DNA of 64,000 nt, taken from IMG/VR virus record IMGVR_UViG_3300012953_006207, positions 16,697-80,696 of that record. The stretch is one strand, 5' to 3'. This DNA is from a virus. The notes beneath the pieces were generated by a model. The model was not told the DNA's origin. It made no database searches and was given only the letters and a program-made list of their open reading frames with translations. Below, in pieces: positions 2,070 through 45,657 of the stretch. The position numbers and the translations under genes were made by a program. Positions within the stretch are counted from its first letter, which is position 1; the number at the start of each line of letters is the position of its first letter.

Positions 2070-2123
2070 GCTTGAACAATATCAAAAACCCTGTATGATT
2101 TCAACTAAATAACAAGAACTGAC

Positions 2124-2864: not shown

Positions 2865-2870
2865 CTTAGC

Positions 2871-4845: not shown

Positions 4846-5864
4846 TGAAAAAAACTCCCCAAAAAGAAACAAGCACTCCAGTGGGGTTTCACTGGCTTGA
4901 ATACTTGTCTCTAAACCCTGATATCCAGCACCTCGACAGGTTTCAGGCTGTAAAGCATTGGATAGAAAAAGGGCAATTCGAGAATAGAATTTATCACATG
5001 AAAAATAAAATTCGTGTGAGCGATGCATCTACGAATAAACATCATAGCACTCTCGTATATTCAGCTATAATAGGTAATTACGAGGAGCCTAAACGACCAA
5101 ATATAAAGCTAAACAATAACACCCCCTTTGTTTTGCTCAACGATACATATGGCGATGGAATACCTGCTCATGACAATCGCCACAAAGCTAGACACGTTAA
5201 AATTTTAGGCTACAAAAATTTCCTACAAAAGAACACAATATGGATAGATGGCAGTTTTATACTGAACTGTAACCCAAATCATCTCCTGAAAGAAATTGAT
5301 TTTGAAGATTACGATATAGCCGTACCGAAGCATAGAATAAGAAATAACGCTCTTGAAGAAGCTGAACAAATTCTAAGGAACGAGACTGACTATGTGACCC
5401 GAGGCAAAATTGAACGTCAAATAGACATTTACAAAAAAAGAGGATATAAGTTTGATAACGGCCTAGCAGAAACAGGAATTCTAGTCCGAAAGAACACTAA
5501 TCCAGTAAACGAATTTTGCGACTTATGGTGGAAACAAATTTGCGACCACAGCTTAAGAGATCAACTTAGTTTTAATTATTGTTTGTGGGTGATGGAAAAG
5601 CAGGGGAAACCATTAAAAGTTAAATACATAGATAAATCTTACTGGAGACGACCCATTGTTAGCGTAATTGAAGAAGAATGCCCCAAAGAATTACCCAAGG
5701 ACTTTCATTATTTAGAGTACGAAAAGCTAAACGCGGACATTGCGAGAGACAATCTCTCAAGAGAAGAAATCGAAAAACATTGGATAAAATGGGGGCAAAG
5801 GGAAGGCAGAGAGTACAGTCTGGAAGATGCTAAAAATAGACATTTCATATACATACCTCACTAG
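4845..5864 (+). CDS. DUF616-type glycosyltransferase flanked by two F..Y...N.D...HW..G..E.R repeats
   Basis: VYSAIIGNYE, WIDG, H..RN...EEA and RDQLSFNY motifs; repeat present at both ends. Confidence 0.75.
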   Translation: MKKTPQKETSTPVGFHWLEYLSLNPDIQHLDRFQAVKHWIEKGQFENRIYHMKNKIRVSDASTNKHHSTLVYSAIIGNYEEPKRPNIKLNNNTPFVLLNDTYGDGIPAHDNRHKARHVKILGYKNFLQKNTIWIDGSFILNCNPNHLLKEIDFEDYDIAVPKHRIRNNALEEAEQILRNETDYVTRGKIERQIDIYKKRGYKFDNGLAETGILVRKNTNPVNEFCDLWWKQICDHSLRDQLSFNYCLWVMEKQGKPLKVKYIDKSYWRRPIVSVIEEECPKELPKDFHYLEYEKLNADIARDNLSREEIEKHWIKWGQREGREYSLEDAKNRHFIYIPH

Positions 5865-5911
5865 ACTTTTGCCAGATGTCATTTTTCGGCCAAATAAGTG
5901 TATTCATATAT

Positions 5912-6106
5912 ATGAACAAGCTTTCCAAGGGCGACCAGAAACTATTGCTCCAACTTTTAGCCAATCAAATAAAAGAATCTCATTTCAACTCTTTGCGCTA
6001 TCATTCAGAGTCATATTACGAAAGAACCGTTAGCTTACAGAGAATATTTAATATATTAAGTCATGAAGCTTCGGACATAGGAAGGATTAAATTTGATTTA
6101 TTTTAA
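5912..6106 (+). CDS. Small hypothetical protein
   Basis: ATG at 5912 follows a GTGTAT motif at 5898. Confidence 0.5.
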   Translation: MNKLSKGDQKLLLQLLANQIKESHFNSLRYHSESYYERTVSLQRIFNILSHEASDIGRIKFDLF

Positions 6107-6776
6107 TATACCTTGGGCAGAAGATCAAAACATAGTGGAGGCTTACAATAAGTTTATGGAGGTCATACCTAACGACAGTGACTTTGCTTGTTTTGTAGAC
6201 GGAGACGCAATGTTTGCGAATGCATTCTTCGGAGCAATGCTTTATGAAATTATAGAAAAGCACTCAGACAAAAACTTTTTTTCTTCTTATGTTAGCAGGT
6301 GCGCTTATGATGGCGCGGGAGCTTGGATGATTCCAGATGATCAAGAATGCCGTTCAATAAAGGTATCCCGAAAAGATATAGTAGAAAGTAATGATATGAA
6401 ATTTCATAGAGATGTCGGTAAATCTTTATGGAAAAAAAATAAAACTAGTTTAATTAAAATAGATGAGCCTTTCCTGAAAGAACGAAAAACTTCTAGCGGA
6501 GACCTAAGCTATTTTTCAGGCACTTGTTTTTTAATAAGGAAATCTCTTTGGAAAAAAATAAACAAATTTAAATCTTTTTGGAGACAAGGAAGCGATCTAA
6601 ACACTCGCTTCTTCGGGGTAGACAATAGGATTCATAAAGACGTGTTAGAATACGGCGAGTCTCTTTATTTAATGAGAGGAGTATACTCTTACCACTGGTA
6701 CAGAAACATTCATACAAAGCAAGAGTTTTACGATTATTCACGCGCTTCGCACGAACACAAAGTAATTAGTTTATAA
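6093..6776 (+). CDS. GT-A fold glycosyltransferase
   Basis: CFVDGDA DxD motif, SG.CFLIRKSLW and GVDN. Confidence 0.65.
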   Translation: MIYFNIPWAEDQNIVEAYNKFMEVIPNDSDFACFVDGDAMFANAFFGAMLYEIIEKHSDKNFFSSYVSRCAYDGAGAWMIPDDQECRSIKVSRKDIVESNDMKFHRDVGKSLWKKNKTSLIKIDEPFLKERKTSSGDLSYFSGTCFLIRKSLWKKINKFKSFWRQGSDLNTRFFGVDNRIHKDVLEYGESLYLMRGVYSYHWYRNIHTKQEFYDYSRASHEHKVISL

Positions 6777-6791
6777 ATTTTATTTTTCATA

Positions 6792-7442
6792 TCAACCTTC
6801 AAATTTGTACCCGAAATACTCAATGTCTCGCGCATATTTTTTCGTAACGATTTGTTTTGTTTCATTATCGTAATATTCGGTATAGTGTTTGCGCTTTGAT
6901 TTGTTTAAGTGCGGAAGTTGCTTTTGTAAAATTCCAGCTTTATCGCAAACAACATTAAAGTCTTCTTGGAAGTTTTCGAATCTGCCTATAAAATCTATAT
7001 TGTCTAAGCTAATTACTTGTCTCTCAAATTTATCAATTTGTGATTCCCAGTGGTCGTCAAAGTTTTTTTGAGTAAAATTTACAAAATCTTTAAAATTAAA
7101 TTTATTTATATCGGGATTCTTTTCGTTAAAAAAGTCACGGATATTTTGATCTTGTGGAATGTTCCTGTAACAGGCTCCATTGTTTAATTCTAAAATTCTT
7201 CTGCATAAGTGGGTGTATCTTGAAACTAACCTTGAATAAGGGTTTCTAACAAAAGTAAAAATATAATTTAAATCAGAAAGATCGACTTCAATTAACTCTC
7301 TATTTGTATACCCATGTTTTTGCAATTTTTTTCCAATAGAAGTATTTCCTGCTTTATGATTTACAATGTATAGTACTTTTGTATTTTCGTTTAGTGATCC
7401 ATATACTTCACGTTTCATATTTATATTAAAACTAAACCTCAC
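6792..7442 (-). CDS. Sulfotransferase_2 family protein
   Basis: KAGNTS, FTFVRNPYSRLVS, DFIGRFE and Y..D...FGY motifs. Confidence 0.85.
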   Translation of the reverse strand: MRFSFNINMKREVYGSLNENTKVLYIVNHKAGNTSIGKKLQKHGYTNRELIEVDLSDLNYIFTFVRNPYSRLVSRYTHLCRRILELNNGACYRNIPQDQNIRDFFNEKNPDINKFNFKDFVNFTQKNFDDHWESQIDKFERQVISLDNIDFIGRFENFQEDFNVVCDKAGILQKQLPHLNKSKRKHYTEYYDNETKQIVTKKYARDIEYFGYKFEG

Positions 7443-8044
7443 TACTCTCCAAATTTGTAGCCAAAATACTCAATATCCTTTGCGTATTTCTCTGCAATAA
7501 TCTGCTTTGTTTCTTCGTCGTAGTATTCGGTGTAGTGCTTGTGCTCCGTTCTGTTATGATGCGGGAGTTGTTGTCTTGGGATTCCTATCTTATCACAAAC
7601 AACATTAAAGCCTTCTTGGAGTTTTTCAAATTTTATAACTACATCAGCGATAAATTTTCCAGATTTATCAATTAGTATATCAACTTGATTACGTGTTATA
7701 TGTCTGTAATCATGACCCGCAGGGCCAGTTTGATATTGTGGCAAATTCAAAGCTGTTTCTTTCAATGATAGACCTTTAATCAAAGTACTTTCGATAACTT
7801 TAGGAAGGGGTTTTTGTAAATATTTCCACGCGCTTACAAATTTGTCCCACGGATTTCTTGATACTACGAATATTAAATAATCAGAATATTTAATTAAATC
7901 TTCATCTTTGAATTCTGGGCTATCGACTCCATCGATAAAAGCAGTATTGGGAATATCATGCATAGACAATGCGTTAAGTATGGAAGTTTGCCCACACTTT
8001 CTTTGATGAATAAAGATAAATTTGTGTTTATGGCTGATCATCAC
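7442..8044 (-). CDS. Sulfotransferase_2 family protein
   Basis: SHKHKFIFIH..KCG.TS and RNPWDKFVS motifs; C-terminus nearly identical to the neighbour. Confidence 0.85.
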   Translation of the reverse strand: MMISHKHKFIFIHQRKCGQTSILNALSMHDIPNTAFIDGVDSPEFKDEDLIKYSDYLIFVVSRNPWDKFVSAWKYLQKPLPKVIESTLIKGLSLKETALNLPQYQTGPAGHDYRHITRNQVDILIDKSGKFIADVVIKFEKLQEGFNVVCDKIGIPRQQLPHHNRTEHKHYTEYYDEETKQIIAEKYAKDIEYFGYKFGE

Positions 8045-8840
8045 CTTCGTAACGTTCTTTAACTATTTGTATTATATCTTCTTTAGATTTTTTCCTAATA
8101 CTTTTACGTAGGTCATGATTAGTTTCTATTTCAGGGTCTGAAAAGCTTATGTGATAAATGTCTCCTATCGTCTTACATAAGTTACCGCTCGTATTAGGAT
8201 CATAAATAAGATTTATCATTTTATCTTTGTTAAAACCTAGTCTCCAACATAGATCATTTTTATCGTTTTGTCCGAAAGGTATACTCTCATCAAATTTTTC
8301 CTTTGATGCCTTTGTGAATGCCAACATTGGCTCAGAATCTATGAGTTTATCAAAATCTGGTTTCCCGTTTTCCACAGGAACTCTTTTGGCCATTAATGCA
8401 TAGTAATTAAAATCACCTTCGTCAGAGGTTAAGCCTTTGCATATATCGTCAAATAATTTTGATGTAAAAAAACAATCTCCGTCTAAACAAAATAAATATT
8501 TACCTCTCGACAAGCCCTCTTTTATAGCCACGTTTCTTGCGTTGTTTATATTTGTTAAGTAATGAAATTTGTGCTCGAAAGTTCCCAAAGGCTTATACTC
8601 ATTATAAAGGAAAGGAATTTCTATATGGTCATGCCTGAACTTCTCCAATAATAATTTTATGTCATTTAGGTAATCTGTATCAAAAATACGATTTAAAACC
8701 CAAATTCTTTTAAAATTTATCTCCTTTTCCTTTTCGAGTATGTAACTCAATTCAGTTAATCGAGAGATGCGAGAAGATTTCGGCGGGGTATAATTACCAA
8801 GCACTCTAGCAACTACTATATCGTGATTGTTAGTGTTCAT
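8028..8840 (-). CDS. Putative glycosyltransferase (GT-A)
   Basis: NNARN.AI..G and LDGDCFF (DxD) motifs. Confidence 0.6.
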   Translation of the reverse strand: MNTNNHDIVVARVLGNYTPPKSSRISRLTELSYILEKEKEINFKRIWVLNRIFDTDYLNDIKLLLEKFRHDHIEIPFLYNEYKPLGTFEHKFHYLTNINNARNVAIKEGLSRGKYLFCLDGDCFFTSKLFDDICKGLTSDEGDFNYYALMAKRVPVENGKPDFDKLIDSEPMLAFTKASKEKFDESIPFGQNDKNDLCWRLGFNKDKMINLIYDPNTSGNLCKTIGDIYHISFSDPEIETNHDLRKSIRKKSKEDIIQIVKERYEGDDQP

Positions 8841-9651
8841 CGGCTCCCGATTTAATGCTGTTGTTTTGTGAGTCTAAGTCTCCAACAAGGTATGCATCAG
8901 TAAGCAATTGTTTGTGCGTCTCTGACTTGGAGAACTTTCTCAGTTTCTCTAATGATTTGTCCCACTTTGCAAATTTAGCGTAAGATGGAAATAACATTCC
9001 GTAAGCTACCCGCCTCATGGGAGCACCAGCTTTCATTTTAGATTGACCGTGGCAAAGGTTCTCTGGAAATATTATTACATCTCCTGCATTTAATTTTGGT
9101 ATAGTTACCTTATCGAAGAAGTTGGAATCTTCCTTTAAAAAAGACTGTAGTACATCTTGACCTCTCGCAAAATAAGAGCTTTTATGCGACCCTCTTATGT
9201 AGCCAAGTCCGCCCGTAGAAGGTTCTTGGCCTTTCAATATTATTCCAACTGATAGCTGTCCCGTTCTCGTCCAGCACGGAGAATCTAAACTTTCAGTTCC
9301 TTGCGTTAAATAATAATGTATAGCGTCTTTGCCAAATGATTTTCCATGCAAATGATTGAACGGGTCTGTTGAAGCTTCCTGCTCTACTATAAATCCATGA
9401 TCTAATCTAAAGTTTTTGCCTAAACATTCTCGCGCTATACTTGTTATTTTTTCATCAACGAAGAAGTCTATGAATACTTCATGACTTTCAAACACGTCTA
9501 ATATTTTATATCCACCATCTTTTCTTTTCTCTTTGGCGTTATCTATAACGGAATTAGCTAAATCAATTCTTTCTTTAGAAAATGCATTTCTTTTTATAAG
9601 CATTCCAAAGCAATCGAAAAAATATAAATCTTGTGAAATCATAACTACCAA
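8830..9651 (-). CDS. PhyH-like 2OG-Fe(II) dioxygenase
   Basis: LHG, GGL.YI.GSHK, L.AGDVIIF.E.L.HG and RR motifs. Confidence 0.8.
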   Translation of the reverse strand: MVVMISQDLYFFDCFGMLIKRNAFSKERIDLANSVIDNAKEKRKDGGYKILDVFESHEVFIDFFVDEKITSIARECLGKNFRLDHGFIVEQEASTDPFNHLHGKSFGKDAIHYYLTQGTESLDSPCWTRTGQLSVGIILKGQEPSTGGLGYIRGSHKSSYFARGQDVLQSFLKEDSNFFDKVTIPKLNAGDVIIFPENLCHGQSKMKAGAPMRRVAYGMLFPSYAKFAKWDKSLEKLRKFSKSETHKQLLTDAYLVGDLDSQNNSIKSGADEH

Positions 9652-10766
9652 CCCTTCTTAATACAGTCGGTAATGTATTCTCTTTGCTCTTTCGTGACCC
9701 ACCAACCTACTGGAATAGAAATAAGTTCGGGTGTTATTTTGTCTAGAGTTGGAAGGTGACTATTAAATTGATTTACGCAAGAGTGAATATCATTCCTCTC
9801 ATGAACTTGACTCACCATGATTTCGCACTCTTTCATATAAGCCATGAAGTCGTCTTTTCTTTCTACAAATAAACTGTAAATCCAAAAGCTTGAATCCATT
9901 CTTTCATCTCTTTCGGTCAACCTCACGCCTTCAACACCTTCCAGTTCTTGATCGTAATAATGCGCGTTGCTTTTATGAGTAGCAAGATTGGCGTCAAGGT
10001 GTTTTAAATTTTCTATACCTATAGCAGCAGCGATATCGTTCATATGAAACTTGAATCCCCATTCGGGTATATCTGCTTCACACCTAAAATCTTTTTTATT
10101 TGTATCTCTATCTATTCCGTACCACCTCAACAACTTGGCGCGTCTATGAAATTCGTTAGTCGGACATACAAGTAATCCGCCATCGCCAGTAGTTAAATGT
10201 TTGATGGCTTGGAAGCTAAACGTACAAAAATTTCCACTATTACCTATCCTTCGGCCATTAAAGGTACTTCCAATCGCGTGGGCGCAATCTTCAATAACCA
10301 AAGGTCTAAAGCCGTACATTTGCTCTGTTTTATCTACTATGTTTTTAATTCTATCTAAATCTACGGGGTATCCTCCCCAGTGGACTATAAATATAACCTT
10401 AGTCGAAGGAGAGATTTTTCTCTCTAAGTCGTCTAAATCCATATTTAAATTAAAGTAATCGACATCTACCCATTTTATATTTAAACCATTAGCAAGTATA
10501 GGCCAGTTTGTGGCTGTACAAGTCAACGGAGTAGTTAGAACTTCATCACCCTCACTTATGAAATCTTTTTTCATCAAGTGAAGTGCGAGATGTTCAGCCG
10601 AAGTAGCAGCATTAGTAGTGCAAATGTAATCGTTGCTAAGATAAGATTTAAGTTCAGTTTCGAATTCTTCTACTTTCGGCCCCTGACCGATGAATCCGCT
10701 TTCTAAAACTTTGCCAACTTCTTGTTGGGCTGTACTTGACATAAATACTTTAAATAAAGGAATCAT
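9645..10766 (-). CDS. DegT/DnrJ/EryC1/StrS nucleotide-sugar aminotransferase
   Basis: GPKVEEFE, VHWGG.P, IEDCAHA.G and FSFQAIKHLTTGDGG (PLP lysine). Confidence 0.92.
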   Translation of the reverse strand: MIPLFKVFMSSTAQQEVGKVLESGFIGQGPKVEEFETELKSYLSNDYICTTNAATSAEHLALHLMKKDFISEGDEVLTTPLTCTATNWPILANGLNIKWVDVDYFNLNMDLDDLERKISPSTKVIFIVHWGGYPVDLDRIKNIVDKTEQMYGFRPLVIEDCAHAIGSTFNGRRIGNSGNFCTFSFQAIKHLTTGDGGLLVCPTNEFHRRAKLLRWYGIDRDTNKKDFRCEADIPEWGFKFHMNDIAAAIGIENLKHLDANLATHKSNAHYYDQELEGVEGVRLTERDERMDSSFWIYSLFVERKDDFMAYMKECEIMVSQVHERNDIHSCVNQFNSHLPTLDKITPELISIPVGWWVTKEQREYITDCIKKGW

Positions 10767-12049
10767 ATATTTTTAACTTTCCATACTGTGTCTGGGTTAA
10801 TTTCTATTCCAAATCCCGCTCTATTTCCCAGTTGATCATCAAACCAAGCTTTGTACTGTCCTACCATATGATTATGCATACATCCTCCCCATGCGTTCTT
10901 CATATCTTCATAAAGGTAAGCATCTAATGATTTAGTTAGAGGCCATTTAAACTGAATTTTAGATTGCGTGAAATTAAATGTCCTCCAAGATACTTGAGAA
11001 GAGTCTAAATTATTGAACCCGTTATTGACTATGCCTTTTTTATTGAGTCGATTAGCGTGTTCTTCGTCGCTAGAAGATTTTATATCCTCAAGCCTCTCCG
11101 TCTGACTTGGATCGTATGTTATCAGATGACAATATGAATATATGCAGTTTCTGTGTTCTTTGTAGAACTTATTTAATTTAAATAAATAATCAAAAAGAAT
11201 CGCATCATCGTCACAAAGCATAAACGTTATATCTGAATCAGTTTGATTAACGGCTTCAGTGGCGAACTTTCCAAATATAGAATTACCCCTTTTTCTTTTT
11301 TCTTCTTCGGAGTCATTTGTTTTTATAATCTTTACTTGAGATTCCATTTGCCGATGTTCGGGGTAAGATTCGAAATAATCAGACAGAACATTTTCTACGT
11401 CTTGATTCGTGCTATCATCTACAATGCATAACTCCCAATTTTTATAAGTCGAAGTGAAAACGCTTTTCAGTGCAAATTTTTGAGACATTTGCGGTCTATC
11501 ATAATAGAAAAATAATATCTGTATTTTTAAATCTGGATTACCATCTCTGTGCTTTACTTCAGGAACTTCAGGTACGTTTATTAAACTTAAATCTAAGGAC
11601 ATTCCCAAGTCTGTTTCAGTTTCGTCATCTACGTTGAACCCAAGTTCGTAGTAGCACTTTAAAGCCACCATGTTTTTCCTCAATACTCTTAAAGTAGCAG
11701 TGGAATAACCATCTTTTTTCAAATATTTAAATAGTTCAAGGTACGCAGCTTTCGCGTAGCCGTATCCCCTGTGGGTTGGATGTATATCCATACCTACTTC
11801 TATGGAAGTTCCGGTGTCTTTGTCTGTGCGAATATAACCTACAGGTATTCCGCGAACTGAAGGAGCACCAGTTTCTACTACAATTTTAAACCAAGAAGGT
11901 CTATCTTTCCGATACCACTTTTCGTACTCATCTATGGTAAAGGTTTTGTCGTTATGAAGAAAAGATCGCGTACTCGGATCGTTTCTTATATTTAGTACAA
12001 ACTCAGCATCTGTGACTTCTAGATGTTTAAGGTGTATTTTCAACACCAA
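10763..12049 (-). CDS. GNAT acetyltransferase (PseH-like) fused to a GT2 glycosyltransferase
   Basis: N-terminal HRGYGYAK acetyl-CoA motif; C-terminal Y.NWEL.IVDDS and LCDDD motifs. Confidence 0.8.
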   Translation of the reverse strand: MVLKIHLKHLEVTDAEFVLNIRNDPSTRSFLHNDKTFTIDEYEKWYRKDRPSWFKIVVETGAPSVRGIPVGYIRTDKDTGTSIEVGMDIHPTHRGYGYAKAAYLELFKYLKKDGYSTATLRVLRKNMVALKCYYELGFNVDDETETDLGMSLDLSLINVPEVPEVKHRDGNPDLKIQILFFYYDRPQMSQKFALKSVFTSTYKNWELCIVDDSTNQDVENVLSDYFESYPEHRQMESQVKIIKTNDSEEEKRKRGNSIFGKFATEAVNQTDSDITFMLCDDDAILFDYLFKLNKFYKEHRNCIYSYCHLITYDPSQTERLEDIKSSSDEEHANRLNKKGIVNNGFNNLDSSQVSWRTFNFTQSKIQFKWPLTKSLDAYLYEDMKNAWGGCMHNHMVGQYKAWFDDQLGNRAGFGIEINPDTVWKVKNI

Positions 12050-31608: not shown

Positions 31609-31681
31609 CAAATTGGGGACCCCATGTCATTAGCCGAACACGGCCAATGACGCGGGGGTGTGGGGGGGTACAGAACTTGCT
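31609..31681. repeat. GC-rich palindromic element, copy 4, with sigma54-like site
   Basis: CAAATTGGGGACCCCATGTCAT-tagccgaacacggcca-ATGACGCGGGGGTGTGGGGGGG-TACAGAACTTGC. Confidence 0.9.
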
Positions 31682-31759
31682 TCGGAACCATTTAAAAAAA
31701 AGAAAAAAAATGACCGTTAGGGGGTTGACTTATTCCAAGAAAGAGAGTAGATTAAGAGA

Positions 31760-32146
31760 GTGGACAGGGGTAAGACCCAGTACGAGCCCAAGGGCAGGAT
31801 TACAAAATCTAGGCAGACAGTATGCGACGAGGGCAAGAAGCTGTAAGACCCTCGGCCTGAAACTGCCGTTTAAATTTCTCGCAACAACGCGAGGAAGCAT
31901 AGGTGAAGAACATTAAACGTCCGTGAGAGGCAACGGCCTATGCAACAATTTACTGGGAGGCAGAATACAGTCTAGGCAAGCCTAACGTAGCGAACGGGGT
32001 ACGCGCCCTGTTAGGGACGAGGAAGCACCAGTAGACGTTTTCGCAATAACGCGGGAATGAAACTAACTAGAAAGGTAACATAGTGCAGGAGGTTGGCCAG
32101 AGAAGGCGGTTACCGCTGGGCCGTAAAGCACTTGAAAAATGCCTCT
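31760..32146 (+). ncRNA. Candidate large structured non-coding RNA (~390 nt)
   Basis: Starts at +1 of the family promoter (TTGACT 31725, TAGATT 31748), has no credible long ORF, and contains more than 10 nested helices. Confidence 0.65.
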
Positions 32147-32159
32147 TAATTTTTGATAA

Positions 32160-32366
32160 ATGAAAAACTACAAAACATACCAAGCCCGTAACGCTGTCAA
32201 AGCAGCGCAAGTCACCAACCACATCAAATCCCGCAAGGCTCAAGGCGTTGAACACAACGAAGCTAAAGCTGAAGCGTATTATATATATAATATAAAACAG
32301 GGTAAGAAAATTATTCTAAACACCCTAAACTACGCAACGCCTACCAAATCTCTGGTATGTAAATAA
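32160..32366 (+). CDS. Small basic hypothetical protein
   Basis: 68-aa ORF directly after the candidate ncRNA. Confidence 0.55.
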   Translation: MKNYKTYQARNAVKAAQVTNHIKSRKAQGVEHNEAKAEAYYIYNIKQGKKIILNTLNYATPTKSLVCK

Positions 32367-32393
32367 ATAATAAAAATAACAAGTCTGGGTTCA

Positions 32394-32454
32394 CCCCCAG
32401 ACCCCCGTGTCATTGTCCTTGGCCCATGACGTGGGGTCCCCAAAAACGGTCAAG
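32394..32454. repeat. GC-rich palindromic element, copy 5
   Basis: CCCCCAGACCCCCGTGTCAT-tgtccttggccc-ATGACGTGGGGTCCCCAAAAACGGTCAAG. Confidence 0.9.
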
Positions 32455-32522
32455 CTTTATTTTTTTTATTTATTTAAATGGTGGGACAGCCAATGTCCTA
32501 CCCCCCATGGTAATCTATACGC

Positions 32523-34401: not shown

Positions 34402-34459
34402 TATCAACCCCCCCTAGTGGGGGGCTTTAATTTATTTTTATTTATATATTTATATCGTT

Positions 34460-34852
34460 ATGGAAAAAGTACAAGTTTATCGCAACCTGCATCGGACAGA
34501 AGAAGACGGAACGCACGTTTATAGCGTTCGCAATGACAAGGGCATTGTCGTAGACCACGTTGCAGAAATTACATTGAGTCGTCCTATCTTGAGAGTCGGC
34601 CCCAAAGGTAATCAGCGAGTGCGTGATGAGAAACGTAAAAACGTTCATGCTTATATCCAAGGCATGAAGATGAAAGAGTCAGTGATTGATGACCCCCGCT
34701 CAGGCGAAAAAAAGTGCGAGTGGCAAAAGATTACTTATAACCCTTATAAACATAAGAGTTTTGTTTTAGTAAAGGACGAGTCCGTTGCAGTGCGTGAAGC
34801 GTGGTTTGTTGAGATTCGTCGAGATGGTGTTTGGGCGTGGCTCCCGGAGTAA
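34460..34852 (+). CDS. Conserved phage protein (VYRNLH...KRKNVHAY...TYNPYK)
   Basis: Motif pattern recalled from many tailed phages; function unknown. Confidence 0.75.
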   Translation: MEKVQVYRNLHRTEEDGTHVYSVRNDKGIVVDHVAEITLSRPILRVGPKGNQRVRDEKRKNVHAYIQGMKMKESVIDDPRSGEKKCEWQKITYNPYKHKSFVLVKDESVAVREAWFVEIRRDGVWAWLPE

Positions 34853-37794: not shown

Positions 37795-37826
37795 CCCGCC
37801 CCCTTCTTCGGAGGGGGGTGGTTTTT
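37795..37826 (+). terminator. Terminator closing the early region
   Basis: GCCCCCTTC-TTCG-GAGGGGGGT (UUCG loop) followed by T5. Confidence 0.75.
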
Positions 37827-37976
37827 GAAAAATTTTTTGTCGCAATAACTACGAAAGGGCGTGAGGGGGTTGTTTTACAACTTTACAAGAAAAGAAGTCC
37901 TACTCTTTTACGACCTCGAAAAAATCCCCGGAGGGGATTGCTTTTCAGAGTCCTTTTGATATACTGGCGTTGCCTT

Positions 37977-38684
37977 ATGAAGACTTTACTATTCTGCACA
38001 TCACATTTCAAAGAAAGAGAAGAATATTTAAAAAGATATGAAAAATGGGCGGGATACTACCTTGATTTAGATTGGGAGGACAAAACCCTCTTTATGATCG
38101 ACGACTGTTCCGACGCTTCGCTCGTAAACACAAACTTATTTAACATAATTAAAAGCAGTGAGTTGCCAGAAGAATCGGCGTTATCCACAAACAAAGTCAA
38201 TTTCGTACATTTTGAAGAAAAAGCTCCATGTCACAAAGACGGACAGGCAGCAAATTCAGCAGGATGGTGGAGAGGTTACTTGTCTATAGTCGATATAGCT
38301 AAAAAGTACGACTTCGAGAGAATCATACATGTAGAATCAGATTTATATCTAATCTCAAAAAATATAAGAGATTTTATTGAAGGTAGAATGACTGACGGGT
38401 GGCATTCCTTTTTGTGCAGAAAGTACAACTGGCCAGAATCATCTTTGCAGGTAATTAACAAAGATAAGTATGAAGCATTCGAAGAATTGCGGTCAGACCT
38501 AGAAGAGCTTGGTTTAGAGAATATTGATGCAAGCCGTGGACCCGCAGAGCTTTTGCTTCCATTCACAAGAATAACAAAGGGCTTTAATGGAAGTAGGTAC
38601 GGAGAGGATTCCCCAAGTCAAACTGCTGGAATGGACTACTTTGCCCAGTGCAGAGACAACACTTTAATTATAGCAGAAAAATAG
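37977..38684 (+). CDS. Putative glycosyltransferase-like protein
   Basis: MIDD.S and IIHVESD motifs; start at MKTLLF after a TTGCTT..TATACT promoter. Confidence 0.55.
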   Translation: MKTLLFCTSHFKEREEYLKRYEKWAGYYLDLDWEDKTLFMIDDCSDASLVNTNLFNIIKSSELPEESALSTNKVNFVHFEEKAPCHKDGQAANSAGWWRGYLSIVDIAKKYDFERIIHVESDLYLISKNIRDFIEGRMTDGWHSFLCRKYNWPESSLQVINKDKYEAFEELRSDLEELGLENIDASRGPAELLLPFTRITKGFNGSRYGEDSPSQTAGMDYFAQCRDNTLIIAEK

Positions 38685-39545
38685 ATGATAAAAAAAGGTA
38701 TCATACTAGCAGGAGGAGCAGGGTCTAGACTCTATCCGCTAACAAACAATCATCCCAAAAGCTTGTTGCCCGTATACGACAAGCCGATGATATACTATCC
38801 TCTTACTACTCTTATAGAAAATGGAGTAAAAGAAGTATGCGTTATATCTTCAGTGGAACACACTCCCAAGTTTAAAGAGATAATTGGTGATGGAAGTAGA
38901 TTCGGCGTAAAAATACAATACAGGACCCAAGAAAGCCCAATAGGAATTCCTCAAGCATTTACGATCTCAGAGGACTTTATCCAGAATGATAGTGTGGCAC
39001 TGATTCTTGGAGATAACGTCTCAAACGGCTCCACAGCGTTCAAAAAGGCATTCAGAGAGTTTAAGGACGGAGGTTCTATATTTGCCTATGAAGTACAAGA
39101 CCCAGAGAGATACGGAGTGGTTGAGTTCGACGAAGAAGGAAAAGCTATCTCAGTAGAAGAAAAGCCAAAAAAACCTAAAACCAATTTTGCAATTCCGGGT
39201 TTATACATTTTTGACAATAAAGTGGTAAAAGTAGCTAAATCTCTTAGACCTTCAGCCAGAGGAGAGCTAGAAATAGTAGATGTCATTAAATTTTATTTAA
39301 ATAAAAGAAAATTAATGGTTTATCAAATCAATCGTGGCTGCGCTTGGCTCGACTCTGGCACATCAAGCAGCCTAAATGAAGCATCGGAGTATATAGCAGT
39401 AATAGAAAAGAGACAGGGCGTAAAAATCGGATGCCCAGAAGAAGCAGCATTAAGGAAAAAGCTAATAACAAAAGAAAAATTAGAAGAAATTATTGAAAAC
39501 ACTCCTAAATGCGAATATAGAGAATATTTAGAAAGATTAACATAA
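38685..39545 (+). CDS. rmlA: Glucose-1-phosphate thymidylyltransferase
   Basis: GIILAGG.GSRLYP.T...K.LLPVYDKPMIYYPL, LGDN, EKP, SARGELEI and WLD.GT motifs. Confidence 0.95.
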   Translation: MIKKGIILAGGAGSRLYPLTNNHPKSLLPVYDKPMIYYPLTTLIENGVKEVCVISSVEHTPKFKEIIGDGSRFGVKIQYRTQESPIGIPQAFTISEDFIQNDSVALILGDNVSNGSTAFKKAFREFKDGGSIFAYEVQDPERYGVVEFDEEGKAISVEEKPKKPKTNFAIPGLYIFDNKVVKVAKSLRPSARGELEIVDVIKFYLNKRKLMVYQINRGCAWLDSGTSSSLNEASEYIAVIEKRQGVKIGCPEEAALRKKLITKEKLEEIIENTPKCEYREYLERLT

Positions 39546-40334
39546 ATGCAATATCCATTACCTCCCCTCGACTTAAGAATAGAAGTAGGTCAACCCAAAG
39601 ACGCAGGAGAAAAGCATTGGAAAGTAGTATGCGATCATGCAGAGCGGTGTTTTCGGTTTCTAGCAGGTCGCCCTCAAAAACACTGGAATGTCCTCGACGT
39701 AGGATGCGGTTGTGGAAGATTGGCCGTAAACCTCGTAGATGAAGTAGAACAATACACTGGCATAGAAGTGCAAAAACGCTTTGTTGATTGGTGCAGAGAA
39801 AATATCGATAAAGGGCATTTCTATTATTATGATTTCCATAATCATATGTACAATAAAGAGGGATCAGTTAATAACATAGAATGGGCTAATATTGAAGACT
39901 CTTCACAAGACGTAGTATATATGTCTTCTGTGATTACTCATATGAGAACAAAAGACTTCTTATCTATAATGGATGAATCTTATAGAGTTTTGAAGAACGG
40001 CGGTAAATTAGTTTTTTCATGTTTTGTGCAATCAAGTGCCAGCAAAGGAAAAGAAACTGTTCCACACGGTAAAGACGGAATACTTCCTATAGATAAAACA
40101 ATTGATGAGGTGTCTTGGACTGATGATTTGAATGATTGTAGATATATTGTCTATAAAGATGAGTGGATCGAAGAACAATTTAAAATACGCGGATTTAACC
40201 CGAACGCCTTCCTTCCCGGTTTCTGGGGAGGCAGAGAAGTAACTAAAGGGGAAAGAAGCTGGACTTTTGAGGATAGATATCAAGATTGGTTTTGTTGGCA
40301 AAAACCCTCAATACAGAAATCACCTTTACTCTAA
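39546..40334 (+). CDS. Class I SAM-dependent methyltransferase
   Basis: VLDVGCGCGRLA, SVITHM and RVLKNGG motifs. Confidence 0.85.
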   Translation: MQYPLPPLDLRIEVGQPKDAGEKHWKVVCDHAERCFRFLAGRPQKHWNVLDVGCGCGRLAVNLVDEVEQYTGIEVQKRFVDWCRENIDKGHFYYYDFHNHMYNKEGSVNNIEWANIEDSSQDVVYMSSVITHMRTKDFLSIMDESYRVLKNGGKLVFSCFVQSSASKGKETVPHGKDGILPIDKTIDEVSWTDDLNDCRYIVYKDEWIEEQFKIRGFNPNAFLPGFWGGREVTKGERSWTFEDRYQDWFCWQKPSIQKSPLL

Positions 40335-40359
40335 GCCAGAATTTAATTATTATCTGAAT

Positions 40360-41253
40360 ATGATTGCGTTGATAGGAGCAACAGGATACGTAGGCCAAGC
40401 TTTCGTAAAAGAATTAGTAAATAGGAAATTAACTTTTTTTGAAATTCATAGGAAGAATACTGATTATTATGATATTCAGAAGTTAGTTGAAATACTGTCC
40501 ATCATTAACGCCGATTTTGTTATCAACTGCGCTGGCTACACGGGCAAGCCTAATGTGGATGCTTGTGAAACTAATAAGGGGGAATGCAGAAAAGGTAACA
40601 TCGAGTTACCTAAAGTCATTTCTAACGCTTGTGCGTTAGTAGGCATTCCTTGGGGTCACGTTTCTTCTGGGTGCATTTACACTGGCAATAGATTAGATGG
40701 TGCGGGGTTTACGGAAGAAGACCCTCCTAATTTTCATCATTTTTCTGAAGTTAAGGGTAGTTACTACAGCGGAACCAAAGCTGAGGCTGAAGATTTAATC
40801 AAGGTTATATCTGAAGATTATTATATATGGCGTCTGCGTATTCCTTTCAACAACGAAGATGGCCCAAGAAACTATTTGTCTAAGGTTATGAACTATGACC
40901 GTCTGCTTGAAGCAGAGAACTCAGTCACTCACTTGGGGGACTTTGTTAGTTCCTGCATCGACCTTTATCAAAATAAAGCTAGTTATGGAATTTATAACGT
41001 AGTTAATTCTGAGCCTATTACTACATCTTTTGTAGTTTCAAAAATCAAAGAGATTTTAAATTTAGATAAATCTTTTGAGTTTTTCTCTGACGAAAAGGAG
41101 TTTTATCAAGTTGGGGCATCTGCCCCAAGGTCTAACTGTGTTTTGGATAATTCTAAATTAATCAGGGCTGGGGTTAATATCAGGTCGTCCTCAGAAGCTA
41201 TAGAAGACAGTCTAAGGAACTGGGCTTACCAAGATGAATTGCTACATAATTAA
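40360..41253 (+). CDS. dTDP/UDP-4-keto-6-deoxyglucose 3,5-epimerase/4-reductase (RmlD/NRS-ER-like)
   Basis: GATGYVG, NCAGYTGKPNVDACE, SGCIY, F.EED.PNF, YS.TK and RN...K motifs; start at ATG 40360. Confidence 0.85.
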   Translation: MIALIGATGYVGQAFVKELVNRKLTFFEIHRKNTDYYDIQKLVEILSIINADFVINCAGYTGKPNVDACETNKGECRKGNIELPKVISNACALVGIPWGHVSSGCIYTGNRLDGAGFTEEDPPNFHHFSEVKGSYYSGTKAEAEDLIKVISEDYYIWRLRIPFNNEDGPRNYLSKVMNYDRLLEAENSVTHLGDFVSSCIDLYQNKASYGIYNVVNSEPITTSFVVSKIKEILNLDKSFEFFSDEKEFYQVGASAPRSNCVLDNSKLIRAGVNIRSSSEAIEDSLRNWAYQDELLHN

Positions 41254-42139
41254 TTTCAACAGACTAAAGTGGACTAAGCAATTAGCTATAGACCTAGCCG
41301 ACAGAGGCTTCACTCCTATTATACTTGATAATAATTCTTCGTACCCACCTTTACTGGATTGGTATAACTCTTCGGATTTTAAATTTAAATTAGTGAAGTT
41401 TGATCAGAATCATGGCCATAGAGCTTTCTATCATAGCGGATTTTATAAAGAGGTAAAAAGCGAATACTTTGCTATGACCGACCCTGATCTTGATATAACC
41501 TGCGCTCCAGAGGATTTCAAAGAAGTTCTAATGGAAGGTTTCAGCGCAAAACATGAATTCATAGGAAATAATGATGATATAATCAAAGTGGGGTTAAACC
41601 TAAAAATAGATGACCTACCAGAAAAGAGTGAAGATTTAATTTTTGATCCCGACATTGTAATCAATCACGAAAAAGGTTATGGAGGAGGAGAAACCAAAAA
41701 GGGTTTATACATAGCTGCTCAACTAGACACAACATTCGCTATATACAAAAACCACGGATCAGAATTTAGTCAACGAAGAGAATACAGCTTATGGCCTTCG
41801 ATTAGAACCGCACCCCCATACGAAGCTAGACATTTGCCTTGGTACTCAACTTACAGCGGAGTAGACGAAGAAGATAAATACTATATGGATAGTATACAAA
41901 GAAAAGATGTTGATTGGAGTTGGAGAATGAAATGTAATATTGACGAAGAACTTTACGGCATTAAGCACGATAATAACACGCCAATAGAAGTTGAAGTCGA
42001 AATAGGTCAAGGCGGAGTACTGGAATCCAAACAGCAAGAAAATATTTACAAAAACAAAGACTTAGATAACCTATCCGCATTTGCTCACCTCTCAAACCCG
42101 CCTCAGCGCGTATATTTTAATCCAAAGCATGACTCTTGA
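41234..42139 (+). CDS. GT2-like glycosyltransferase
   Basis: II.FNR, ILDNNS.YPPLL, TDPD, DTTFA.Y and HLPWY motifs. Confidence 0.75.
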   Translation: MNCYIINFNRLKWTKQLAIDLADRGFTPIILDNNSSYPPLLDWYNSSDFKFKLVKFDQNHGHRAFYHSGFYKEVKSEYFAMTDPDLDITCAPEDFKEVLMEGFSAKHEFIGNNDDIIKVGLNLKIDDLPEKSEDLIFDPDIVINHEKGYGGGETKKGLYIAAQLDTTFAIYKNHGSEFSQRREYSLWPSIRTAPPYEARHLPWYSTYSGVDEEDKYYMDSIQRKDVDWSWRMKCNIDEELYGIKHDNNTPIEVEVEIGQGGVLESKQQENIYKNKDLDNLSAFAHLSNPPQRVYFNPKHDS

Positions 42140-42761
42140 TATCATAGTTTGTACATATCATCAGGATGCATTGCTAAAATGCTTTATAAACTGTGTTAAA
42201 TCCCAGACCAATCGTAATTGGAGGCTGATAATAGTTCACGATGGCTATGATTCGTTTTATGAAAATCTTGAGAAAGATTTAGAAAGCAATGGTTATTTAG
42301 GGGAGAATATAATACTTACTCACACAGGGCAAAGAGTTGGCGATTATGGGCATAGCGTTTTAAGATTTGCTGTAAACAAATATGTGGAAGATGAAAACTA
42401 CGTAATTCTTACTAACGCAGATAATTACTATGTTCCCGTTTTAGTTCAAGAAGTCCTCGGAACTGCGAAGCAGTTTAAAGAGCCTGAATTTATATATTTT
42501 GATTGTGTTCACGATTACGCAAGGCCATACTTCAATCCGCCATTCGGCTATGGGCATTTAAGCTCAAGGTTAGAAATGAACCTTATAGACAGGGGATGCG
42601 TGGCATCCAAAGGTTGGTTATGTAAAAAAACTGAGCCAGATCATATAGGCGGAAGGTGTGCTGATTGGACTCATTTGGATAAAATGATCAAGCACAAAAA
42701 AGAAGATGGATCGGCAGTTAGATGCCAAAAAATAAGTAAGATTTTATTTACGCATAATTAA
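42129..42761 (+). CDS. GT2 glycosyltransferase
   Basis: SQT..NW.LIIVHDG, G.YGH and NADNYY.P motifs; start at MTLDII. Confidence 0.75.
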   Translation: MTLDIIVCTYHQDALLKCFINCVKSQTNRNWRLIIVHDGYDSFYENLEKDLESNGYLGENIILTHTGQRVGDYGHSVLRFAVNKYVEDENYVILTNADNYYVPVLVQEVLGTAKQFKEPEFIYFDCVHDYARPYFNPPFGYGHLSSRLEMNLIDRGCVASKGWLCKKTEPDHIGGRCADWTHLDKMIKHKKEDGSAVRCQKISKILFTHN

Positions 42762-43712
42762 ATGAAAATATTAGTTACAGGTGGTTCAGGTTTTATAGGT
42801 TCAAATTTTATTAGATGCATAATAAATAAGCCTGAAGTAGACGTTGTTATTAACCTTGATAACTTATCCTACGCTGCTGATGAATCTAACACCAAGCAGT
42901 TCGAGGATTGCGAAAAATATCAATTTGAAAAAATATGCCTCTCTGAATACTCTAAAGTTTTAAAAGCTGTAGAAAAGCACGAGCCCACACATGTAGTTCA
43001 TCTCGCTGCTGAATCTCACGTTGATAATTCAATAGCTAGTTCAAAAGAATTTATAAACTCTAACATAGTAGGTACTCACTCCCTACTTGAAGCTTGCAGG
43101 GGGAAAGACATAAGATTTCATCATGTGTCAACTGATGAAGTATACGGCGAAGTAATTGATGATTGTAAGTTCACCGAGCAAACACAATATAATCCTAGGA
43201 ATCCATATTCCGCCACTAAAGCAGCTTCAGATATGCTTGCTCTTGCATACACGAATACATACGGAATGAAAATTACGCTTTCTAATTGCTGTAATAATTA
43301 TGGACCCAATCAGCATGACGAAAAATTCATCCCCACAGTAATCAGATCGCTAACCAAGGGCTCCAAAATTCCAGTTTACGGTAAAGGTGAAAATATAAGA
43401 GATTGGATTTATGTAGACGACCATTGTTATGCCCTATGGGAAATATTAATTAATGGAAAAATAGGGGAAAACTATTTAGTAGGAGCAGACTGCGAAAAAA
43501 CTAATTTAGAAACTATTAGCTGTATTTGTAGCGAGCTTAATCTAGAAAGTGACGATTATATAGAGTTTGTTGAAGATAGGCTTGGTCACGATATGAGATA
43601 CGCAATAGACAATAGTAAAATTTTAAATGAATTAAAATGGAAGCCTACGTTTAGCTTTTCTGAAGGTATAAAGCAGACTATATCTTTTTACGAAAAAAAA
43701 TATTCCAAGTGA
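42762..43712 (+). CDS. rmlB: dTDP-glucose 4,6-dehydratase
   Basis: VTGGSGFIGSNF, HLAAESHVD, STDEVYG, YSATKA, NNYGP.Q..EK.IP and DR.GHD.RY motifs. Confidence 0.95.
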   Translation: MKILVTGGSGFIGSNFIRCIINKPEVDVVINLDNLSYAADESNTKQFEDCEKYQFEKICLSEYSKVLKAVEKHEPTHVVHLAAESHVDNSIASSKEFINSNIVGTHSLLEACRGKDIRFHHVSTDEVYGEVIDDCKFTEQTQYNPRNPYSATKAASDMLALAYTNTYGMKITLSNCCNNYGPNQHDEKFIPTVIRSLTKGSKIPVYGKGENIRDWIYVDDHCYALWEILINGKIGENYLVGADCEKTNLETISCICSELNLESDDYIEFVEDRLGHDMRYAIDNSKILNELKWKPTFSFSEGIKQTISFYEKKYSK

Positions 43713-43742
43713 GTCTTCGCCAAGTGTATTTCTTGATACAAT

Positions 43743-44540
43743 ATGGAGAACAAGAAAACTACTTCTAAAAAAACCTCCGACAGAAAGCTTAAAGTCAGAG
43801 GCGGTAAAAAGTTAGCTGAAGAGATAGTTGACGCAACAAACATTCATGAACGAAAACGAGTTGAAAACCCCCTTAAAAGAGCTATTAAATTAAATCAGCT
43901 TCCTTGGACGGAAAAACAAAAAGAGTTTTTTAAGATAGCACTTCACCCTTCTACAAAGATAGTGTTTGTTAATGGACCTGCTGGAACAGCAAAGACCCTG
44001 CTTTCCACTTATTGTTCGTTGCAGTTGCTCAATATGAAAGTAGCTGACAGTATCATGTATCTAAGGTCTGCCGTGGAAAGCTCAGATAAAAGCCTAGGCT
44101 TTCTTCCCGGAACAGCAGAAGAAAAATTAAGATTCTATAACTTACCATTTTTGGATAAGTTGGATGAACTACTATTAGAGACCAAGGCCGAAAAGCTTGA
44201 GGAGCAAAACAGAATATCTATGTTTCCTGTTAACTTCGCTAGAGGTATGAACTGGAAAGACAAGTGCATAATCTTGGATGAAGCTCAAAACTCAACCATA
44301 AAAGAAATCGTAACTGTTTTAACTAGGATGGGCGAGGGTTCTCGCTGTTTTATTTTAGCTGATCCGATGCAAACAGATTTAAAGCAAGAGGATAAAGCTC
44401 ATGGCTTTGAGAAAATTTGCAAAGCTCTTTCGGACGAAGAAAGTGTCCAGAATGGAATTTATACTTTCAACTTCGACGAAGAGGATGTTATGAGGTCTGA
44501 GTTAGTTAAATTTATAGTTTCAAAGCTCAAGGGGATATAG
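43743..44540 (+). CDS. phoH: PhoH family ATPase
   Basis: GPAGTAKT, LGFLPG...EK, RG.NW, ILDEAQN, TRMGE and R.ELVK motifs. Confidence 0.92.
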   Translation: MENKKTTSKKTSDRKLKVRGGKKLAEEIVDATNIHERKRVENPLKRAIKLNQLPWTEKQKEFFKIALHPSTKIVFVNGPAGTAKTLLSTYCSLQLLNMKVADSIMYLRSAVESSDKSLGFLPGTAEEKLRFYNLPFLDKLDELLLETKAEKLEEQNRISMFPVNFARGMNWKDKCIILDEAQNSTIKEIVTVLTRMGEGSRCFILADPMQTDLKQEDKAHGFEKICKALSDEESVQNGIYTFNFDEEDVMRSELVKFIVSKLKGI

Positions 44541-45657
44541 CGTCCTCTGCAAACTTCAAATTACCCTTCACCCTCTCTCTTTCTCCTTCTGAGAGAAAGG
44601 GGGAGGCTAAAACTTTTTGGCATAACTCAAGGGAGTGATTGTAGTGACCAGCCCAGTAAGCGCATATAGAAACTTCGTCGTCGAATCTCCATTGGTATAC
44701 ATCAGGACTTAAAAACAAAGAATCCTCTGGTACGGGAAAGTTTAAATAGTTTTTTCCTATTTCGTATCCTAATCTATAAGATTCTGATAGACGACAAAGG
44801 TTAACGATTTCATAAATTGGTTCTAATCTATTCTCGGTTGACCGAAAAGCTAACAAGCAGCTATCTATAACTTCATGCATGGGAGCACCCATAGAACGCT
44901 TGATTTTAGCTATACTGTAATAAGACTCAAAGATTTCTTGAGACCAATACCCTAGCTCTCCCCTTTTAAAATAATACTCAATAGCTTTTTTGTTATTGCC
45001 ACAGTCTTTATATGATTGCGCGGTATAAAAGGTATACCGAGCTTTCATAAATGGGTCCTGCTCCTTCTTTAAAGCTTCGCTAAGAATTTTTGCATCTTTT
45101 TTGTATTTATCTCTATCTTTGCTTCTGTTTCCGTCCGTAAAGACTTTCACTTTTATATCTCTATTGTCTCCTATTGAGGCTACCTTGCTTTCGCATTCTA
45201 AAAATTCATGAACTACTCCTTTGTATATCCAATCAGTGTTATTTCTAAAAATTAGATACCTGAAGTATTCCGTGCTTCCAAACTCACACGGAACCCTGTA
45301 GGCGTCATGTTTGAGATTTTTTAAGAATTGTTTTTTATTAAAATTCTCTGGGACTTCGAAAATTTCATCCGCATCTAAAGTTATTCCGTATTTTACGTCT
45401 TTTCTTTTTCTTAAATGTCTTAGAGCAGATGTTCTGTTATGAGCAAAATCTTTCCAAGGCTCTTCGATTACCTCAAACTCAATTGAGTGTTTCTCCAAGA
45501 ATTTCGAAATTATTTTTTGTGTTCCATCTGTAGAGCCAGTGTCGACAATTAAAGCGTAGTCTATGATTGGTAGGGCAGACTTTAGTGCTCTTTCTATTAC
45601 CTTGGATTCGTTTTTAACTATGCAACATAATCCTATTTTTTGAGAAGTTCTAGCCAT
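44527..45657 (-). CDS. GT2 glycosyltransferase with TPR repeats
   Basis: IVKNE, VDTGSTDGT, DFAHNR, LDADE and VHE motifs; C-terminal R..FY.AQSY.D helical repeats. Confidence 0.88.
   Translation of the reverse strand: MARTSQKIGLCCIVKNESKVIERALKSALPIIDYALIVDTGSTDGTQKIISKFLEKHSIEFEVIEEPWKDFAHNRTSALRHLRKRKDVKYGITLDADEIFEVPENFNKKQFLKNLKHDAYRVPCEFGSTEYFRYLIFRNNTDWIYKGVVHEFLECESKVASIGDNRDIKVKVFTDGNRSKDRDKYKKDAKILSEALKKEQDPFMKARYTFYTAQSYKDCGNNKKAIEYYFKRGELGYWSQEIFESYYSIAKIKRSMGAPMHEVIDSCLLAFRSTENRLEPIYEIVNLCRLSESYRLGYEIGKNYLNFPVPEDSLFLSPDVYQWRFDDEVSICAYWAGHYNHSLELCQKVLASPFLSEGERERVKGNLKFAEDAISP

Follow-up and report, generated by a model that had tools for sequence, protein, structure and literature searches.

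The locus described here begins with a sigma-70-type promoter, continues through approximately 400 nucleotides that hold no ATG gene, and is followed directly by a basic 68-amino-acid open reading frame (ORF), with palindromic elements on either side (Table 1). It lies in the stretch of DNA that we analyzed, a 64-kb window that forms part of an 80.7-kb IMG/VR virus record with an estimated completeness of 51%. A first-pass annotation, made from the sequence alone, had read this gene-free stretch as a large structured noncoding RNA with a promoter of its own. The promoter is as that annotation described it, a member of a family with six matches in the window against 0.01 expected, and every sequence string that it cited is present where it had been placed. 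Within the gene-free stretch, which we refer to as the array, no internal promoter was found.

The array does not behave as protein-coding DNA. On the + strand between 31760 and 32160, the only frames are two that begin with GTG, of 28 and 26 codons, and a 106-amino-acid TTG frame whose start lies ahead of the promoter, and there is no credible ORF until the ATG at 32160, in agreement with the earlier reading. In relatives with approximately 86% DNA identity, translated matches are spread equally over both strands, in five frames that overlap. The 106-amino-acid frame is broken by stops in the matches of four of five relatives, and the start codon of the 28-codon frame has changed from GTG to GTC in all five. 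Equal matches across frames, together with the stops and the lost start, indicate that conservation acts at the nucleotide level. Neither a kept start codon nor codon-wise substitution in relatives, the marks of a protein-coding gene, was seen in the array, and its description as a noncoding locus therefore holds. Furthermore, the + strand folds at −124.6 kcal/mol, compared with −108.9 ± 4.8 kcal/mol for shuffled sequences (z −3.26; 0 of 100 shuffles as good), whereas the − strand is unremarkable (z −0.68; 25 of 100 shuffles as good), which upholds the proposal of a structured RNA encoded on the + strand.

Table 1. Features of the array and its immediate surroundings, in window coordinates
Feature	Position	Strand	Description
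Palindromic element	31620..31657		Upstream of array (bracket)
Promoter, sigma-70 type	31725..31753	+	TTGACT-17 nt-TAGATT; one of a family of window promoters; predicted start near 31760
Leader	31760..31808	+	Two small hairpins; ends in degenerate linker ACAAAATCT
Cassette A	31810..31869	+	5' bookend; GGCAG 31812/CTGCC 31863 around CGAGGG/CCCTCG
Cassette H, copy 1	31875..31896	+	Hairpin UUUCUCGC-AACAAC-GCGAGGAA; z −5.45
Cassette B	31897..31943	+	GCAUAGG/CCUAUGC stem, conserved large loop, inner hairpin
Linker	31944..31951	+	AACAATTT; cassette joint
CORE	31949..32036	+	Three-way junction; covariation, 53 distinct sequences
CORE P1	31951-31956/32028-32033	+	
CORE P2	31958-31961/31970-31973	+	
CORE P3	31981-31999/32006-32022	+	Long helix
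Cassette H, copy 2	32038..32057	+	UUUUCGC-AAUAAC-GCGGGAA; z −4.05
Cassette D	32066..32156	+	3' bookend; AGTGC 32082/GCACT 32128 around GGCGG-TTA-CCGCT; ends in CCTCTTAATTTTT
68-aa ORF	32160..32366	+	Basic protein; directly downstream, outside the RNA array
Palindromic element	32385..32441		Downstream of the 68-aa ORF (bracket); read in sequence

Known RNA families do not account for the locus. Rfam 15 gave no match at gathering score anywhere in the 64-kb window, and the seven sub-threshold matches around the region (E 1.1 to 9.1) all fall far below gathering. The families from which the first-pass annotation had set the RNA apart, including tmRNA, RNase P, 6S, introns, ROOL, and GOLLD, are thus unmatched at that score, as are the self-cleaving ribozyme, riboswitch, and CRISPR-repeat families of Rfam 15 across the window. 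ARAGORN called no tRNA or tmRNA in the window, and the Rfam tRNA model found none in the record. Likewise, manA (RF01745; threshold, 55.2 bits), a family that recurs below, has no match in the window or in the whole 80.7-kb record.

What the array consists of became clear from its relatives. Loci retrieved through two flanking proteins share similarity only with positions 31941 to 32054, and they carry it at varying places relative to those genes. This shared segment contains the cassette that we call CORE. A first CORE pattern gave 7 true copies among 11 matches in viral contigs; a second gave the same yield there (7 of 11) along with 90 stretches in metagenome contigs. Matches at L057, L059, L061, L062, L079, L095, L156 to L159, and L172 are chance occurrences of the pattern and not CORE. 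The same is true of the 10 pattern matches in 185,579 bacterial and archaeal species genomes, none of which was accepted by our CORE model, R1. At the sensitivity of blastn, the 2-kb region, CORE, and one manA-containing array found no match among 50,697 phage records.

The 92 loci with CORE reduced to 72 non-identical arrays, onto which we mapped 16 seed modules taken from the window and its relatives. The window's array was mapped as leader-A-H-B-CORE-D, the second H (32038 to 32057) being missed by the mapping. Other arrays combine the same and further modules differently: leader-A-H-B-E-CORE-D in L073, leader-A-F-B-G-I-CORE-H-D in L114, G-I-CORE-H-Tend in L092, leader2-tl1-CORE-K in L060, tl2-CORE-manA in L065, leader2-CORE-B-G-manA in L064, and CORE-B-manA-G in L143. 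Across the 72 arrays, the module before CORE may be B, E, I, G, tl1, tl2, or a leader, and the one after it H, K, manA, B, G, or D, with B and G occurring on either side of it. Two relatives catch a cassette change almost in isolation. Up to the end of B, identity to the window is 98.9% for L120 and 99.6% for L073. Both then carry one extra self-closing cassette of approximately 74 nucleotides together with another copy of ACAATTT, the insertion falling precisely on the ACAATTT that the window has there. CORE itself can be missing: L171 shares the window's promoter type, leader, A, H, and D but encloses other inner cassettes, with CORE not among them. In addition, among 51 loci retrieved through neighboring proteins and hence not selected for CORE, seven have cassettes and five of those seven lack CORE. 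The gene-free stretch of the window thus reads as a chain of independent cassettes, namely leader, A, H, B, CORE, H, and D.

Some of the cassettes in sister arrays have features of their own. Cassette K (L058:2880-3103, approximately 224 nucleotides; also after CORE in L060) starts with a manA-type hairpin, GG..-GCGACGG-..CC; Rfam does not call it manA, and it may be an uncatalogued manA relative. The cassettes tl1 and tl2 (141 to 169 nucleotides; L060:8895-9040, before CORE in L065, and in L171) have ends that pair like an acceptor stem and a T-arm, GGTTCGA(A/T)TCC, beside the 3' end; they are not called by ARAGORN or by the Rfam tRNA and tmRNA models.

CORE is the best-defined part of the array. 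Its alignment comprises 53 distinct sequences, in which 48 of 99 columns are invariant. We tested the three-way junction given by RNAalifold, extended by two inner pairs of P3, which amounts to 26 pairs and 1378 cells. Standard pairs form in 99.0% of these cells, compared with 30 to 46% when the partners are slid, and 92 cells are changed on both sides, whereas shuffles give 25.3 ± 3.7 and none of 500 comes as high. Changes on both sides affect 8 of the 26 pairs: an A-U/G-C exchange in P1 (18 sequences), another in P2 (18), a U-A/C-G exchange at 47-87 (14), and five pairs in P3. The single-sequence minimum free energy (MFE) fold of the window's CORE is the same as the comparative structure. 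G-U pairs at two positions of P3, in 22 and 8 of the 53 sequences, fix the strand as +, so the earlier remark that G-U pairs favor this strand is confirmed within the comparatively supported helices. With model R1, the window's CORE scores 111.8 bits (E 1.8e-32), which places it within the family, and each of three virus records contains exactly one copy. By its covariation and conservation, CORE is a new, strongly conserved RNA family for which no catalogue entry was found in Rfam 15. The 48 invariant positions include the unpaired junctions and the P3 loop, and they point to a fixed molecular partner, which may be a host factor, a phage factor, or CORE copies themselves.

These comparisons also sort the helices that had been drawn in the first-pass annotation. 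Three of them, TTTACTGG/CCAGTAGA, AACGGGG/CCCTGTT, and GCATAGG/CCTATGC, have comparative support, and those of A and D are present in the sequence. Two others do not survive. The proposed TAGGC-AA-GCCTA hairpin would have a loop of 2 nucleotides, and its A is a T in most relatives. The long-range pseudoknot GAGGCA/TGCCTC fails in L073, where the two strands read GAGACA and TTCCTC, a non-compensating change. Instead, the 5' strand of that pseudoknot belongs to P2, in which GAGRC pairs with GYCU, with compensatory change in 18 of the 53 sequences; in the window, GAGGC (31958) has GUCU (31970) as its partner and not TGCCTC at 32140. As for the larger claim of a new class of phage noncoding RNA, it finds support in the uncatalogued CORE RNA but not in a single large RNA with domains and a pseudoknot, the parts of which are separate and reordered in the 72 arrays. 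Of the functions suggested at first pass (protein sponge, anti-defense decoy, or ribozyme), the last has no match among the known families of self-cleaving ribozymes.

The other cassettes differ in how much comparison they allow. Cassette B was aligned from 11 sequences, and 4 of its 13 pairs show compensatory changes; it precedes CORE in the window and follows it in L064, L072, L078, and others. The leader and cassette A are conserved together in L070, L073, L120, L114, L148, and L171, with A always after the leader in this sub-lineage, but the three distinct sequences are near-identical and hold no compensatory changes. Cassette D was likewise aligned from four near-identical sequences with no compensatory changes, a fifth copy being present in L171, and alone it folds no better than shuffles (z +0.89). 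Two scans of viral contigs for more relatives of A and D yielded L171 only. The CCTCTTAATTTTT at the end of D may be a terminator; the scan tool called none between D and the 68-amino-acid ORF, and this ORF is probably read through from the promoter of the array. This ORF belongs to no Pfam family, and its homologues are found in seven viral contigs at 61 to 71% identity.

Hairpin H, a type that follows CORE in many arrays, is duplicated in the window, as had been noticed at first pass; the duplication is a two-copy, 16-nucleotide direct repeat at 31876 and 32038, and the window's array contains no tandem repeat. Because H ends in ...GAAAC, a CRISPR-repeat or Racr reading was considered and rejected, as there is no CRISPR-DR match on the + strand and just two copies that lie 162 nucleotides apart. 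Type III toxin-antitoxin (ToxI-like) repeats were ruled out as well, given that there are no tandem near-identical repeats of fixed period. In arrays that terminate in Tend (L055, L058, and L148), the GGGRA of H and a YUCCC before the final T-run change together (GGGAA/TTCCC versus GGGGA/TCCCC), which suggests a long-range terminator stem that would compete with hairpin H.

The cassettes are joined by a common sequence. AAYAATTT occurs 62 times in 25,305 nucleotides inside arrays (2.45 per kb), compared with 19 times in 84,139 nucleotides outside (0.23 per kb), an approximately 10-fold enrichment, and it does not occur inside arrays on the opposite strand. Junctions between unrelated pairs of cassettes read (A/G/T)AACAATTT, TATAAATTT, or AAACAACTT. 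In 51 of the 53 CORE copies, the final linker U forms a pair with the A that follows the 3' strand of P1. A cassette therefore has its start within the U-run and its end immediately ahead of the following AAYAA. RNase E is reported to prefer RN↓WUU in Salmonella (PMC5222698) and an A upstream with a U at +2 in Synechocystis (PMC8682795). The AA↓UUU of the linker fits both of these preferences, which come from species that may differ from the host in this respect, and we count against the fit that any A/U-rich spacer between GC-rich hairpins would match RN↓WUU easily. The linker could alternatively serve in recombination or protein binding. A spacer of related appearance is found at L004:226-400, where true tRNA genes (Arg-TCT and Met) encode ACCA and are preceded by TAATTT; the spacer, ACCA-TTTTT, resembles the cassette linker AACAA-TTT.

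Sequences of the array are present in RNA libraries. For an 801-nucleotide stretch, at least half of its words occur in 14 runs, all but three of which are labeled as DNA-type, and six RNA runs contain small shares of its words; of these six, X17 and X19 are given no weight here. Contigs that cover CORE were found in all four of the metatranscriptome runs compared, which come from four studies; these are assembled contigs and so carry no read ends. One such contig is 99% identical to the window over 31955 to 32110. Another (X18, depth 69) holds a short leader, CORE, and cassette K, and the X20 contig holds a leader, CORE, and the next module. Outside the array, cover is limited to an X16 contig at 32479 to 32582 and to X20 pieces of 18 nucleotides (31691 to 31708) and 23 nucleotides (32456 to 32478), although the uncovered parts of the 1.3-kb stretch compared are not evidence of silence. 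This contig cover lends weak support to an abundant transcript. DNA can occur in RNA libraries and the contigs are assembled, so neither processing nor transcription itself is established by them.

Taken together, our results are most consistent with an RNA-only operon of exchangeable, separately folding cassettes that is probably cut at its linkers into small stable RNAs, a reading to which we assign a probability of roughly 0.6. In such an operon, an early host-type promoter would transcribe small RNA modules in a chain; a terminal stem would close each of them, and the A/U-rich linker AAYAAUUU would join it to the next. The modules would be independent genetic units, a whole module with its linker being gained or lost at the linker. 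Related marine phages would differ in which modules they carry and in what order, while keeping a leader and an end module of the same kind at the two ends. A host endonuclease would then cut the transcript at the linkers and release separate stable RNAs of tRNA-like size, as in tRNA operons, and these RNAs would be products in their own right rather than switches for a downstream gene. The anatomy of the operon is well supported, whereas linker processing and stand-alone function are what we infer mainly from the relatives and from cyanophage S-CREM1. In particular, the window's array has no tRNA gene, tRNA-like cassette, manA, or boxA-like leader, and the analogy with tRNA operons therefore rests on the relatives.

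An argument can be made that the stretch is instead a large RNA of several domains working as one molecule. The shuffling would then be a trace of how a modular scaffold evolved, as it does in other large RNAs associated with phages. The whole stretch does fold better than shuffles, from a single promoter with none found inside, and the explanation retains some weight because contigs from RNA libraries cross cassette borders (X18 and X20) and because leader/A and H/D are kept together as constant bookends. We nevertheless consider it unlikely. Relatives keep neither the long-range pairings of the global MFE structure nor the proposed pseudoknot, each cassette that was tested (CORE and B) closes on itself with covariation, and CORE is dispensable and has varying neighbors on both sides.

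Another possibility bears on what the array does and could be true alongside the operon anatomy. The cassettes could form an anti-defense island of RNA decoys or antidotes for RNA-guided or RNA-sensing defense proteins of the host, with a set that varies because hosts differ. The early promoter would suit such a role, as would the presence and absence of cassettes among near-identical phages, a pattern also seen in protein anti-defense islands, and an abiF-motif RNA lies in the same S-CREM1 cluster as manA (PMC9964418). Yet, no cassette of the window matches the defense-system RNAs in Rfam, the only hit being CRISPR-DR48 at E 9.1 on the opposite strand, and CORE is near-invariant in 53 sequences while decoys would be expected to track diverse targets. 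On balance, a defense-related role for the array seems distinctly improbable.

We give still less credence to a cis-acting 5' leader, in which riboswitch or attenuator modules would control the 68-amino-acid ORF at 32160. It is true that this ORF begins 5 nucleotides past the T-run, with neither a promoter of its own nor a called terminator in between, and that the sister cassette manA was first described as a 5' untranslated region riboswitch candidate (PMC2864571). A leader role for this ORF is unlikely, however, because arrays with the same end module precede other DNA: in L114, L148, and L171, module D is followed by unrelated sequence. By translated matches, the homologues of the ORF in other phages lie 1.7 to 2 kb upstream of the array (approximately 1.7 kb in L048), and in S-CREM1 manA sits between tRNA genes. 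A row of different, shuffled structured cassettes is also unlike an aptamer with its expression platform; neither a constant class of downstream gene nor an expression platform was found, and no terminator/anti-terminator pair was called. Finally, a DNA-level element for replication, packaging, or recombination, with hairpins acting in DNA, would be in keeping with the bracketing palindromic elements and with a linker that marks a recombination joint but is scarcely credible when G-U pairs, fold stability, and linker are all strand-specific, a promoter stands in front, and the sequence is present in RNA libraries.

Returning to the operon of exchangeable cassettes, a bolder version of it can be put forward tentatively. 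Marine phages might carry a combinatorial library of RNA genes, including CORE, B, manA, tRNA-like modules, and others, in which a universal AAYAAUUU joint would flank every cassette and serve both as the cutting site and as microhomology for cassette transfer between phages. CORE would then be a new near-invariant class with a partner of its own, either a captured host factor or itself, as with the cage-forming manA. We regard this version as conceivable, though more doubtful than not.

The genomic setting of the array is that of an uncultured marine phage lineage and not of a T4-like cyanophage, as indicated by a large terminase with at most 27% identity to any cultured phage and by psbA, which was not found in any of three records (the window's own and two relatives, one of 162 kb at 96% completeness and one of 137 kb). 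A search for gp23 carries no information here, as it matched nowhere, its controls included. The window also contains a large gene set for sugar and polysaccharide modification (1104 to 12049 and 37818 to 45657), with a DegT aminotransferase, glycosyl-transferases, a polysaccharide deacetylase, a sulfotransferase, a 2OG-Fe oxygenase, and a nucleotidyl-transferase. In a Pfam analysis of 24 window proteins and one related-locus protein (from L004 and L056), we recovered sugar-modifying enzymes and RuvB-like, DUF932, SprT-like, L5 gp82-like, and gp88-like proteins. The same analysis gave no RNase, ligase, or nucleotidyl-transferase acting on RNA, and the idea of a dedicated processing enzyme encoded nearby was rejected. 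Clustering of the neighbors of array loci revealed early-region synteny only. A protein of the Mycobacterium phage L5 gp82 family (PF25735; window 34457 to 34846) is a neighbor in 39 of the 72 array loci; its gene is mostly just upstream of the array (median, −455), while in the window it lies 2.5 kb downstream, which suggests that the array shifts position within the early region.

Among known systems, manA is the closest in context. It scores above gathering in 4 of the 10 sister loci scanned (L064, L065, L067, and L075), and apart from one true tRNA it is the only family that Rfam finds in sister arrays. There it forms a sister cassette that either follows CORE immediately or is separated from it by a few cassettes, with the same linker at its joints, and both it and the window's family are marine and phage-borne; manA and CORE share no common sequence or fold, however, and the window has no manA. 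The family was published in 2010 as a probable cis-regulatory element and riboswitch candidate from marine metagenomes and T4-like cyanophages (Weinberg et al., PMC2864571), and it is still classed as cis-acting in a review from 2025 (PMC12197685). A 2026 preprint describes manA RNAs that assemble in vitro into 60-mers, decamers, and octamers, or cages (10.64898/2026.07.01.735769). The cages are reported for manA; CORE is not known to form any such assembly.

In the cultured cyanophage S-CREM1 (OP535465), manA starts 2 nucleotides after a tRNA-Leu gene and runs into tRNA-Asn, and wcaG and abiF-like RNAs are found in the same tRNA cluster. Like the window's array, this cluster strings many small folded RNAs end to end in one transcript, with short spacers. 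The two differ in that S-CREM1 alternates wcaG, manA, and abiF-like RNA with tRNA genes, while the window's array has no tRNA, and in that cassettes of the window type are joined by the fixed AAYAAUUU linker, unlike the tRNA ends of phage tRNA clusters. Between tRNA-Met and tRNA-Leu of the S-CREM1 cluster (L170:1163-1332; positions 9962 to 10131 of that record), the DNA is unannotated and includes a T-arm-like GGTTCGATTCC as well as a hairpin-rich segment; further RNAs of the cluster may lie there. Stable RNAs embedded in a tRNA gene cluster have a precedent in the species 1 and 2 RNAs of phage T4. Our literature search turned up no paper on shuffled RNA cassette arrays or on CORE; the supplements of PMC2864571 and PMC9964418, which lay outside its scope, may list manA beside tRNAs.

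Some sister arrays have a further element that would be expected for long untranslated transcripts. In 23 of the 72 arrays, the opening consists of a hairpin and the motif G[AC]TCTTT(G)AAACAA, never found downstream of CORE or on the other strand. This motif resembles rRNA-operon boxA, and the leader in the window lacks it. The single large RNAs GOLLD and ROOL are also phage-borne and ornate, with no function assigned, and often lie near tRNA genes. The window's array, which has no Rfam match to either, differs from them in being a chain of exchangeable small RNAs.

More generally, the arrays recast manA and uncatalogued RNAs such as CORE as probable stand-alone products of phage RNA operons. 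Such operons appear to be common in ocean metagenomes, where the CORE pattern alone matched 90 stretches. A fixed linker between exchangeable RNA genes would offer a concrete signal for processing or recombination, and CORE, with 48 of 99 positions invariant, is a well-defined new target for studies of structure and binding. If the products assemble or capture host factors, they would constitute a largely unexplored RNA-based layer of phage takeover. And if RNA genes are indeed drawn from a combinatorial library, then the arrays would represent the RNA-gene counterpart of a gene-cassette array.
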